Sequence record: NC_073070.1
Length of the DNA stretch: 44,283 nt
Source of the DNA: Escherichia phage CEC_Kaz_2018
Reading direction: 5' to 3' (one strand)
Numbering within the stretch: position 1 is the stretch's first letter; each line of letters opens with the position of its first letter. Below the pieces are notes generated by a model. The model ran no database searches. It had not been told where the DNA came from and saw only the letters and a program-made list of their open reading frames with translations. Both the position numbers and the translations under genes were made by a program. Below are positions 37,287 through 37,462 of this stretch, one piece after another.

Positions 37287-37462
37287 TTATTCAGTCTCAG
37301 ACGAGGGGGGCCATCGACCCCCGTCTAGTCTGAAAGACTGGGGTTTGTCCCGCCTGTCCNGCTCCTCTCCGGGCCGCGTCATCCGGGGCGGGACGGGGGC
37401 GCTGTCCCGCTTTGTCCCGCCCCTTGTTTGTCCCGCTTTCTGTCCCGCTCACTTTATGCAGT
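37287..37462. repeat. noncoding repeat locus B: second copy of two-stem-loop + GTCCCGC array + TTATGCAGT module
   Basis: ~85-90% identical to 20489-20665; hairpin stems identical, loops differ. Confidence 0.85.

Follow-up and report, generated by a model that had tools for sequence, protein, structure and literature searches.

Why should a phage keep the same non-coding module at two places in its genome, once directly 3' of its helicase-primase gene and once inside its tail operon, where 400 bp of non-coding DNA is odd? The question is raised by Escherichia phage CEC_Kaz_2018 (NC_073070.1), a Dhillonvirus. The window, that is, the whole stretch of 44,283 nucleotides analysed here, carries at positions 37287–37462 a module made of a hairpin and short repeats (copy B), which comes back at 20489–20665 (copy A). 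The reading we favor, at a probability of roughly 0.6, is that these modules form an iteron-type replication origin working like the oriV of IncQ plasmids or the ori/crr pair of satellite phage P4, with copy A either a second origin or a helper site. Judged from the sequence, their grammar appears origin-like, with an AT-rich block, direct iterons, one inverted iteron and a palindrome standing beside the gene of what would be an origin-binding, helicase and primase protein.

Over their whole length the two copies agree at 151 of 178 aligned positions (84.8% identity in a global alignment), hardly below the 85–90% that the original prediction had judged by eye, and their local alignment score of 213 compares with a maximum of 24 among 200 random 400-nt pieces of the same genome. 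The left block, with the hairpin and two heptamers, is 94.7% identical between A and B (71/75), and the right block, with the inverted heptamer, four direct heptamers and TTATGCAGT, 87.3% (62/71). The linker between them had been taken for the sole divergent part, with a length of ~27 bp; a linker of ~30 bp does differ between the copies (18/32, 56% identity), but it is position-specific and kept within each position. Each copy has seven heptamers of the GTCCCGC type, six one way and one inverted, where at least seven had been claimed, and the shared terminal sequence is also there, in the form of TTATGCAGT, which closes both copies (37454 in B and 20657 in A). The heptamer GTCCCGC itself is found 20 times in the window against 8.9 expected, with 14 of the 20 inside the two regions. 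The homology runs ~30 bp beyond 37462, to ~37490, when a flipped 21-bp palindrome is allowed for, and region A as a whole (20427–20820) contains two extra upstream units with seven further heptamers.

The hairpins of both copies fold with z = -3.7 to -4.8, that of copy B with z = -4.6 as RNA and -4.1 to -5.0 as DNA on either strand. The two DNA strands of the hairpin fold about equally (-13.3 and -14.3 kcal/mol), and there is one such imperfect palindrome per module. At the other end, 37451–37490 has 77.5% A+T in a genome of 55% G+C, and this block is conserved across genera; on the ground of composition it is a candidate unwinding element, and it may also contain a promoter. TTATGCA boxes recur within both regions. 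A reading of these as DnaA boxes, TTATGCA(C/G)(A/G/T), was tried and set aside as a weak lead at best, positions 8 and 9 not being conserved. The palindrome TTATGCA-N7-TGCATAA at 37454–37474 has an asymmetric 7-nt spacer that reads either GTTTTAT or ATAAAAC among otherwise collinear Dhillonviruses, an inversion that is a loop flip of the kind hairpins and cruciforms produce.

Conservation indicates that the repeat is a functional cis element and not a product of chance, as had been proposed. The module has matches in 157 phage records, at 346 places altogether, and in 155 of these records the match covers 80% of the query or more. Variation within the genus was judged on an alignment of 35 copies (17 A and 18 B), in which the heptamers, the hairpin stem and the AGCACCCC spacer are invariant and the other spacers and the hairpin loop vary, including by 1-nt indels. 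Compared between phages, copies of one position are 88% (A–A) and 90% (B–B) identical, while A and B share 86% inside one genome and 84% between genomes, the last two values (p = 0.01) giving weak signs of gene conversion. Since same-position copies are more alike than A and B of one genome, the duplication is older than the genus, with purifying selection acting on both copies. A recent neutral duplication, variably present among near-identical isolates, had been named as the observation that would undo the claim, and the near-universal presence of the copies in the genus speaks against it. The orientation pattern of the heptamers, ++++-++, is identical in SO-1, EP23 and Ioannina.

The repeat as an observation is not new, since in the record of Sodalis phage SO-1 (NC_013600) the two places bear the annotations repeat_region A and B, with the wording "direct, inverted and palindromic repeat sequences". 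Literature searches turned up no function for repeat regions A and B, and no description of a replication origin, origin mapping or transcriptome for Dhillonviruses or Guernseyvirinae. A coding reading was tried and rejected: A copies shift frame through 1-nt indels, the B copies of Ioannina and L030 have stop codons, and the heptamers are kept regardless of frame. Hypothetical proteins are annotated over the modules in phage B2 (coding sequences AUG84622, 37297–37554; AUG84590, 20490–20681; and AUG84589, 20426–20518), in PaulFeyerabend and in other records; with no conserved reading frame, these are probably spurious annotation artefacts. The window matches B2 (MG581355.1) in length and coordinates without a single indel, but differs from it by 4030 substitutions, most of them in third codon positions, and contains 70 N. 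It was probably built as a reference-guided consensus from another Dhillonvirus, so that details at the level of indels may not be real.

The candidate reader of the heptamers is the adjacent helicase-primase, a protein of 750 amino acids (aa) for which an N-terminal archaeo-eukaryotic primase (AEP) domain, a zinc motif, an AAA_25/RepA-like helicase domain and a C-terminal winged helix are predicted. The N-terminal domain has DxD and H motifs, and its AlphaFold2 model (predicted local distance difference test, pLDDT, of 86) finds as best Foldseek matches the cyanophage S-2L PrimPol (E 9e-6) and RSF1010 RepB' on ssiA DNA (3h25, probability 0.98, E 5e-3). The helicase domain belongs to PF13481 (E 2e-19), and one homologue is named "helicase RepA family" by NCBI; compared by sequence with PDB chains, the protein had no match. 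The C-terminal ~80–90 residues are modeled by AlphaFold2 as helix-strand-helix-helix-wing with pLDDT 84–88, and the Foldseek matches listed for them are mostly winged-helix DNA binders, including plasmid RepA initiators and the origin recognition complex (ORC). This domain is the most variable part of the helicase-primase; a homologue search with the C-terminal fragment alone returned two proteins, and the full-length query was used instead.

It is this variable domain that pairs with the repeats. Five winged-helix types correspond one-to-one to five repeat types, each at two loci or more: GCGGGAC in the window, Ioannina, L211 and L217; CGGACA in phiEap-2 and L215; GGGGAGA in Shemara and L216; (AC)TCGCAA in L212 and L213 (metagenomic); and GGGAT(C) in L214 and L218 (metagenomic). 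The strongest evidence comes from two natural recombinants, in which parts of the protein have been exchanged. The protein core of L215 is 96% identical to that of Shemara and L216 with a winged helix only 40–42% identical; this winged helix is 64% identical to the phiEap-2 type, and the repeats of L215 are the phiEap-2-type CGGACA. At the DNA level, L215 and L216 are ~88% identical up to the winged-helix boundary and 36–60% across the winged-helix segment; past the stop codon identity recovers at the AT-rich island, drops over the repeats, linker and hairpin, and then reaches 96%. The reverse case is L217, in which the N-terminal primase domain has been swapped (58% identity) and the Dhillonvirus winged helix, GCGGGAC and the standard hairpin are retained.

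Heptamer identity thus tracks the winged helix, and not the protein backbone, the neighboring regulator or the neighboring open reading frame (ORF). Other candidate readers were rejected. Although their iterons differ, L215, L216 and Shemara share the upstream Cro-like helix-turn-helix (HTH) protein at 100% identity, and the first downstream ORF is unrelated between phages with a common iteron. A 109-aa HTH protein encoded at the start of the early operon (see below) is replaced in other lineages by an unrelated Cro-like HTH_3 protein that does not track the iterons, a rejection that comes from those lineages and not from Dhillonvirus. As regards the helicase-primase genes themselves (that of the window, 37609–39861, and those of proteins P0006, P0007, P0120 and P0078), they are mosaic in nature, with the winged helix swapped between cores 96–98% identical and the primase domain swapped (58%) where the C-terminal region including the winged helix is 94–96% identical.

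The architecture of copy B, 3' of the helicase-primase gene, is found in Dhillonvirus, L211 (the 68% lineage), phiEap-2, Shemara, L215, L216 and L217, and persists at helicase-primase identities down to ~42–45%; L212 (48%) has a looser version, with iterons in both orientations and without the GC-rich hairpin. The shared order runs from a box through TGAATAGTTATGCA, direct repeats and one inverted repeat to a linker with GGGTTT..GCCGA, further repeats, a G/C hairpin with a bulged T, and TGCATAA. The 14-mer TGAATAGTTATGCA is identical between phiEap-2 and Dhillonvirus, one base off in Shemara and nearly the same in L215 and L216, and the A-type linker of Dhillonvirus resembles the linker of the distant relatives (GGGTTT..GCCGA). 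A search for the hairpin core in other genomes, suggested at the outset, gave, outside the group, only contigs of Dhillonvirus and of eiAU-like phages, plus unrelated coding matches. The Edwardsiella phage eiAU (Eiauvirus) has the same two large gaps as Dhillonvirus, and its hairpin, just upstream of the tape-measure gene, keeps the inner stem (GACGGGGG / CCCC-T-CGTC). The eiAU gap also contains an antisense ORF and a 28-nt inverted repeat with TAAATCAATAAGTG, which is like a site of integration host factor (IHF).

This distribution also orders the two copies in time. Copy A is missing from Guernseyvirinae (phiEap-2, Shemara), whose chaperone and tape-measure genes adjoin each other, and in the complete genomes checked the iteron clusters of each lineage are confined to these loci, with two clusters in Dhillonviruses, one in phiEap-2 and one in Shemara. 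Taken together with the B architecture beside the helicase-primase gene of the relatives, this makes copy B the ancestral one and copy A the later. Copy A goes back to an old duplication, common to Dhillonvirus and Eiauvirus, that placed it in the tail operon. Outside phages, the module gave 0 blastn matches among 72,556 plasmids, and no copies were found in E. coli genomes. Three spaced CGGGAC motifs, looked for in IMG/VR, proved too unspecific a query, which returned coding repeats.

If the modules are origins, each would be the loading site of a single-chain phage initiator that unites a RepB'-like primase, a RepA-like helicase and a winged helix. The winged helices of a helicase-primase oligomer would bind the seven GCGGGAC heptamers (six direct and one inverted), the bound oligomer would bend and melt the adjoining AT-rich TGAATAG/TGCATAA block, and the helicase would load itself. 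The ~49-nt hairpin, once extruded, would be the priming or assembly signal for the primase domain, like ssiA/ssiB of IncQ or the stem-loop of pRN1, and the phage Pol A would then extend the primer. Copy B, beside the helicase-primase gene, would be the ancestral origin, and copy A either a second origin, an option left by its full module and larger number of iterons, or a cis-acting partner site like the crr of P4. Binding, melting, priming and the part given to copy A are what we infer from sequence.

Several points weigh against this proposal. It would be unusual for a tail operon to house a second complete origin. Relative to transcription, the module never changes its orientation, whichever site or lineage is considered; lying at an operon junction, it may be transcribed, and so may have a transcriptional role. 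Region B' of eiAU is far more diverged and has no obvious hairpin. On the protein side, the Foldseek E-values of the winged helix are weak (0.02–0.4), and a Pfam search with the C-terminal 160 residues of four lineages found no family. The winged-helix segment adjoins the iterons, so a single recombination moves both and their co-variation is partly confounded by linkage. In Ioannina (L048, 11382–11450) a terminator, CCGGgtaattCCGGccttttt, stands immediately before region A, and region A' of eiAU (L168/L169) starts with an apparent terminator tail; with a terminator ahead of it, region A must also provide for expression of the tape-measure gene, by a promoter or by read-through. GC skew, which follows gene orientation only, speaks neither for nor against an origin.

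A related view, which we regard as tentative, puts the emphasis on exchange. The last ~100 helicase-primase codons, the iterons and the hairpin would be an exchangeable origin-specificity cassette among near-identical siphoviruses, comparable to lambdoid immunity regions in that co-infecting relatives would be barred from each other's initiator. The cis half would have been copied into the tail operon in Dhillonvirus and Eiauvirus, giving a lytic phage two same-orientation IncQ-like origins, each primed at its structured hairpin by the fused RepB'-RepA-winged-helix enzyme; the second would also restart transcription of the tape-measure operon.

Somewhat doubtful is the idea that copy A is an auxiliary iteron cluster that pairs with B through the helicase-primase, either because it is required in cis, in the manner of the P4 crr, or as a brake or titration site comparable to the handcuffing loci of iteron plasmids. 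The iterons of A are the same as those of B, 16.8 kb apart, Guernseyvirinae replicate with a B-type site only, and P4 needs ori plus crr. On the other hand, copy A is a whole module, AT-rich boxes and hairpin included, with more iterons than B, and seems self-sufficient, while negative control of copy number makes little sense in a lytic phage.

We consider it unlikely that the modules are transcriptional control regions, in which the heptamers would be sites of a phage activator or repressor for the operon that follows (in the case of B the small genes together with the lysis cassette, in the case of A the genes for tape measure and tail tip) and the hairpin an insulator or attenuator. Both copies are gene-sense at operon junctions; B copies have TATA(A/G)T in 17 of 18 phages, and A has an invariant extended -10, TGATACAAT, on the minus strand at 20463–20471, ~26 nt past the hairpin. 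The terminator of Ioannina before region A also creates a need for a promoter, the helicase-primase itself could double as the regulator, and roles in origin and transcription are compatible. Nevertheless, the heptamer goes with the winged helix rather than with the Cro-like regulator or the ORF downstream, 7–14 sites in both orientations together with an AT-rich block are origin-like, and the distance from the hairpin to the candidate -10 is unequal, ~26 nt in A and 18 nt in B. A consensus scan of both regions for sigma-70 promoters and for terminators gave nothing above shuffles, with no canonical terminator at the module hairpin. A separate motif, (A/T)CGGCA(A/G)C, is present downstream of the hairpin in all lineages examined, including phiEap-2, Shemara, L211 and L212. 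It reads ACGGCAGC in copy B (~37255–37262, minus strand, ~25–30 nt past the hairpin) and TCGGCAAC in copy A (~20452–20459, minus strand, ~35–40 nt past the hairpin), is preceded by an AT-rich, -10-like stretch, and could be a transcription or primer start.

The role implied by the original prediction, in which the module would be an RNA leader of the put/nut type that makes RNA polymerase resist downstream terminators, is not supported and appears very improbable. The layout it started from is correct: both copies are in gene-sense (minus) orientation with intrinsic terminators downstream (35305–35276 and 17777–17753), those after B starting at 35305, 32673, 27583, 24369 and 21536 and the one after A at 17777, and HK022 put and lambda nut are likewise two dispersed gene-sense copies with hairpins upstream of terminators. 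The hairpins are stable, with G-U pairs possible on the sense strand, a change at the stem top from TC-NNN-GG to T-NNNNN-A retains pairing, and variation in the spacing between the inverted heptamers, 0 or 9 nt, would be better tolerated in RNA. Against this, Rfam gave 0 matches at the gathering threshold over the whole window, and a permissive scan of the regions gave only sub-threshold noise from microRNA hairpins; the full 192-nt RNA of copy A is marginal over shuffled sequences (z = -1.6). Unlike put and nut, the module is without a family match, lineage-specific and tied to a DNA-binding domain, and it has arrays of unpaired direct repeats together with loop-less palindromes. The four invariant direct heptamers are left unexplained by structure alone, and the perfect 14-bp palindromes resemble DNA sites. 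The stems are invariant within the genus, hence uninformative on compensation, and between genera the outer stem is re-paired, by different bases in phiEap-2. Since heptamer and hairpin change together with the winged helix of the phage helicase-primase while the host RNA polymerase is near-identical, the module behaves as would be expected of a protein–DNA recognition site of the replication protein and not of an RNA acting on the polymerase.

Finally, a selfish or neutral repeat (e.g., a miniature inverted-repeat transposable element), a packaging (pac) site or a coding sequence is scarcely credible, for although TTAT(T/G)CAGT flanks both sides and could resemble a target duplication, and several GenBank records annotate hypothetical proteins over the module, the TTATGCA boxes are internal too and part of the pattern, both copies are fixed in ~155/157 genomes with invariant motifs, there is no conserved frame and no copy in plasmids or E. 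coli, and the terminase genes lie 5 kb from B and 12 kb from A.

The features of the two regions, with the terminators and boxes found elsewhere in the window, are listed below.

Table 1. Coordinates in the window of the two modules, their parts and other features.
Feature	Position	Strand	Remarks
Copy B of the module, extended by ~30 bp	37287..37490	-	119 bp 3' of the helicase-primase stop codon
Hairpin, copy B	37292..37340	-	Long, imperfect; ~20 pairs, G5/C5-6 core, bulged T
Two hairpin-proximal heptamers, copy B	37347..37362	-	Gene-sense CGGGAC-ag-GCGGGAC
Position-specific linker, copy B	37363..37387	-	With CGCGG; 56% to the A linker, kept among B copies
Four direct and one inverted heptamer, copy B	37388..37448	-	Gene-sense GCGGGAC x4, start spacings 12, 16, 10, then GTCCCGC
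AT-rich block, copy B	37451..37490	-	TTATGCA-N7-TGCATAA, TGAATAG, TATAAT hexamer (37481-37486)
Single heptamers, copy B	37347, 37356 (holds an N), 37388 (inverted), 37404, 37414, 37430, 37442		
Copy A of the module	20489..20690	-	Between the tail-chaperone T gene (20821..21051) and the tape-measure gene (17784..20426)
Hairpin, copy A	20495..20543	-	From folding
Seven heptamers and linker, copy A	20550..20651	-	
Single heptamers, copy A	20550, 20559, 20593 (inverted, degenerate), 20608, 20618, 20633, 20645		
Extra upstream units, region A only	20657..20820	-	TGCATA-N15-TGCATAA boxes and seven more heptamers
Perfect 14-bp palindrome GCGGGACGTCCCGC	20704-20717		Within the extra units of region A
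Helicase-primase	37609..39861	-	Candidate heptamer reader; predicted winged helix roughly 37612-37890
Strong intrinsic terminators	35305-35276, 32673-32653, 27583-27567, 24369-24350, 21536-21520, 17777-17753, 8436-8419	-	
ATTGGTTGC boxes	2546, 5488, 5505, 7178, 26404, 36564	+	
ATTGGTTGC boxes	37137, 37508, 37543, 37597, 40400	-	

Between 40201 and 8442 every gene is encoded by the minus strand. Seven strong terminators lie inside or at the end of this 32-kb array, and how late transcription passes them is a question independent of the module. A different set of motifs, the ATTGGTTGC boxes, has 11 exact occurrences and 28 at no more than one mismatch, against 12.9 expected. They are almost always gene-sense, intergenic and within promoter spacers (TTGCAA-N7-box-ac-TATATT), and a palindrome TTGGT-N5-ACCAA is present at three promoters (~26404–26425, 37098–37115 and 40225–40240). 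eiAU has the box too, and Guernseyvirinae have a variant of it, TGTTGGCTG. The pattern suggests a genome-wide operator-like system distinct from the heptamers. The first gene of the early minus-strand operon (39872–40201) encodes the 109-aa protein mentioned above, with an apparent N-terminal coiled coil and a C-terminal HTH (HTH_23 / Sigma70_r4_2; PHROG 9366, labelled "transposase"; annotated in B2 as "nuclease inhibitor gamma"), and possibly this protein targets the ATTGGTTGC boxes.

Dhillonviruses and Guernseyvirinae (Jersey-like phages) are among the commonest phage isolates of E. coli and Salmonella, and are present in therapy cocktails and in the BASEL collection. If the origin assignment is true, it would explain two conserved "empty" regions that annotation pipelines fill with spurious ORFs, and would provide an engineering handle in the form of origin-based plasmids, decoys that confer resistance and swaps of specificity. 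It would also add a single-chain version of IncQ RepA/B/C to the known modes of starting replication, its unusual aspect being the second copy within the tail operon. The natural swaps of winged helix and iterons offer a ready specificity code for testing.

As an origin, the module works like the IncQ oriV, the P4 ori/crr and the pRN1 origin, and is not homologous to them. It also has four direct repeats, an AT-rich block and a palindrome in common with the lambdoid ori, and in lambdoid phages the iteron sequence co-varies with the DNA-binding domain of the initiator. Lambda, by contrast, has its origin within the O gene itself, keeps initiator and helicase as distinct proteins, and relies on P to bring in the host DnaB. 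In IncQ plasmids (RSF1010/R1162) the iterons are bound by RepC, an AT-rich stretch is where the RepA helicase loads, and the ssi hairpins are used by RepB' for priming. These three kinds of element, the hairpins being conserved and in IncQ serving as priming signals, have counterparts in the phage, as do a RepA-type helicase and an AEP primase, the nearest solved relatives of the phage primase including RepB' on ssiA. The phage differs in what appears to be a fusion of the three functions in one 750-aa protein, in having one hairpin per module where IncQ has ssiA and ssiB on opposite strands, and in using 7-mer repeats where IncQ has 20-mers, with no sequence similarity to any plasmid.

P4 has, like the Dhillonviruses, two separated iteron clusters per genome, and requires both its ori and its crr. 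Its origin, different in this from the phage module, is not known to have a comparable hairpin. The P4 alpha protein is a primase-helicase whose C-terminal winged helix binds the origin repeats (PMC4234260, PMC2777425), and it likewise joins primase, helicase and a C-terminal winged helix for short iterons in one polypeptide, although with a Toprim (DnaG-type) primase and a superfamily 3 (SF3) helicase in place of the AEP and AAA_25/RepA-like domains of the phage. 1KA8 was not among the best Foldseek matches of the phage winged helix. The archaeal plasmid pRN1 differs in its SF3 helicase and its lack of iterons, the phage having both iterons and a duplicated module. It has, however, the same order of a small repressor gene, a gene for an AEP primase-helicase-winged-helix protein (ORF904) and then an origin with a large stem-loop. 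Directly 3' of the prim/pol-helicase-winged-helix gene, this stem-loop proved by experiment to be necessary and relocatable, and the authors of that work propose a similar arrangement in some phages (PMC4234260).

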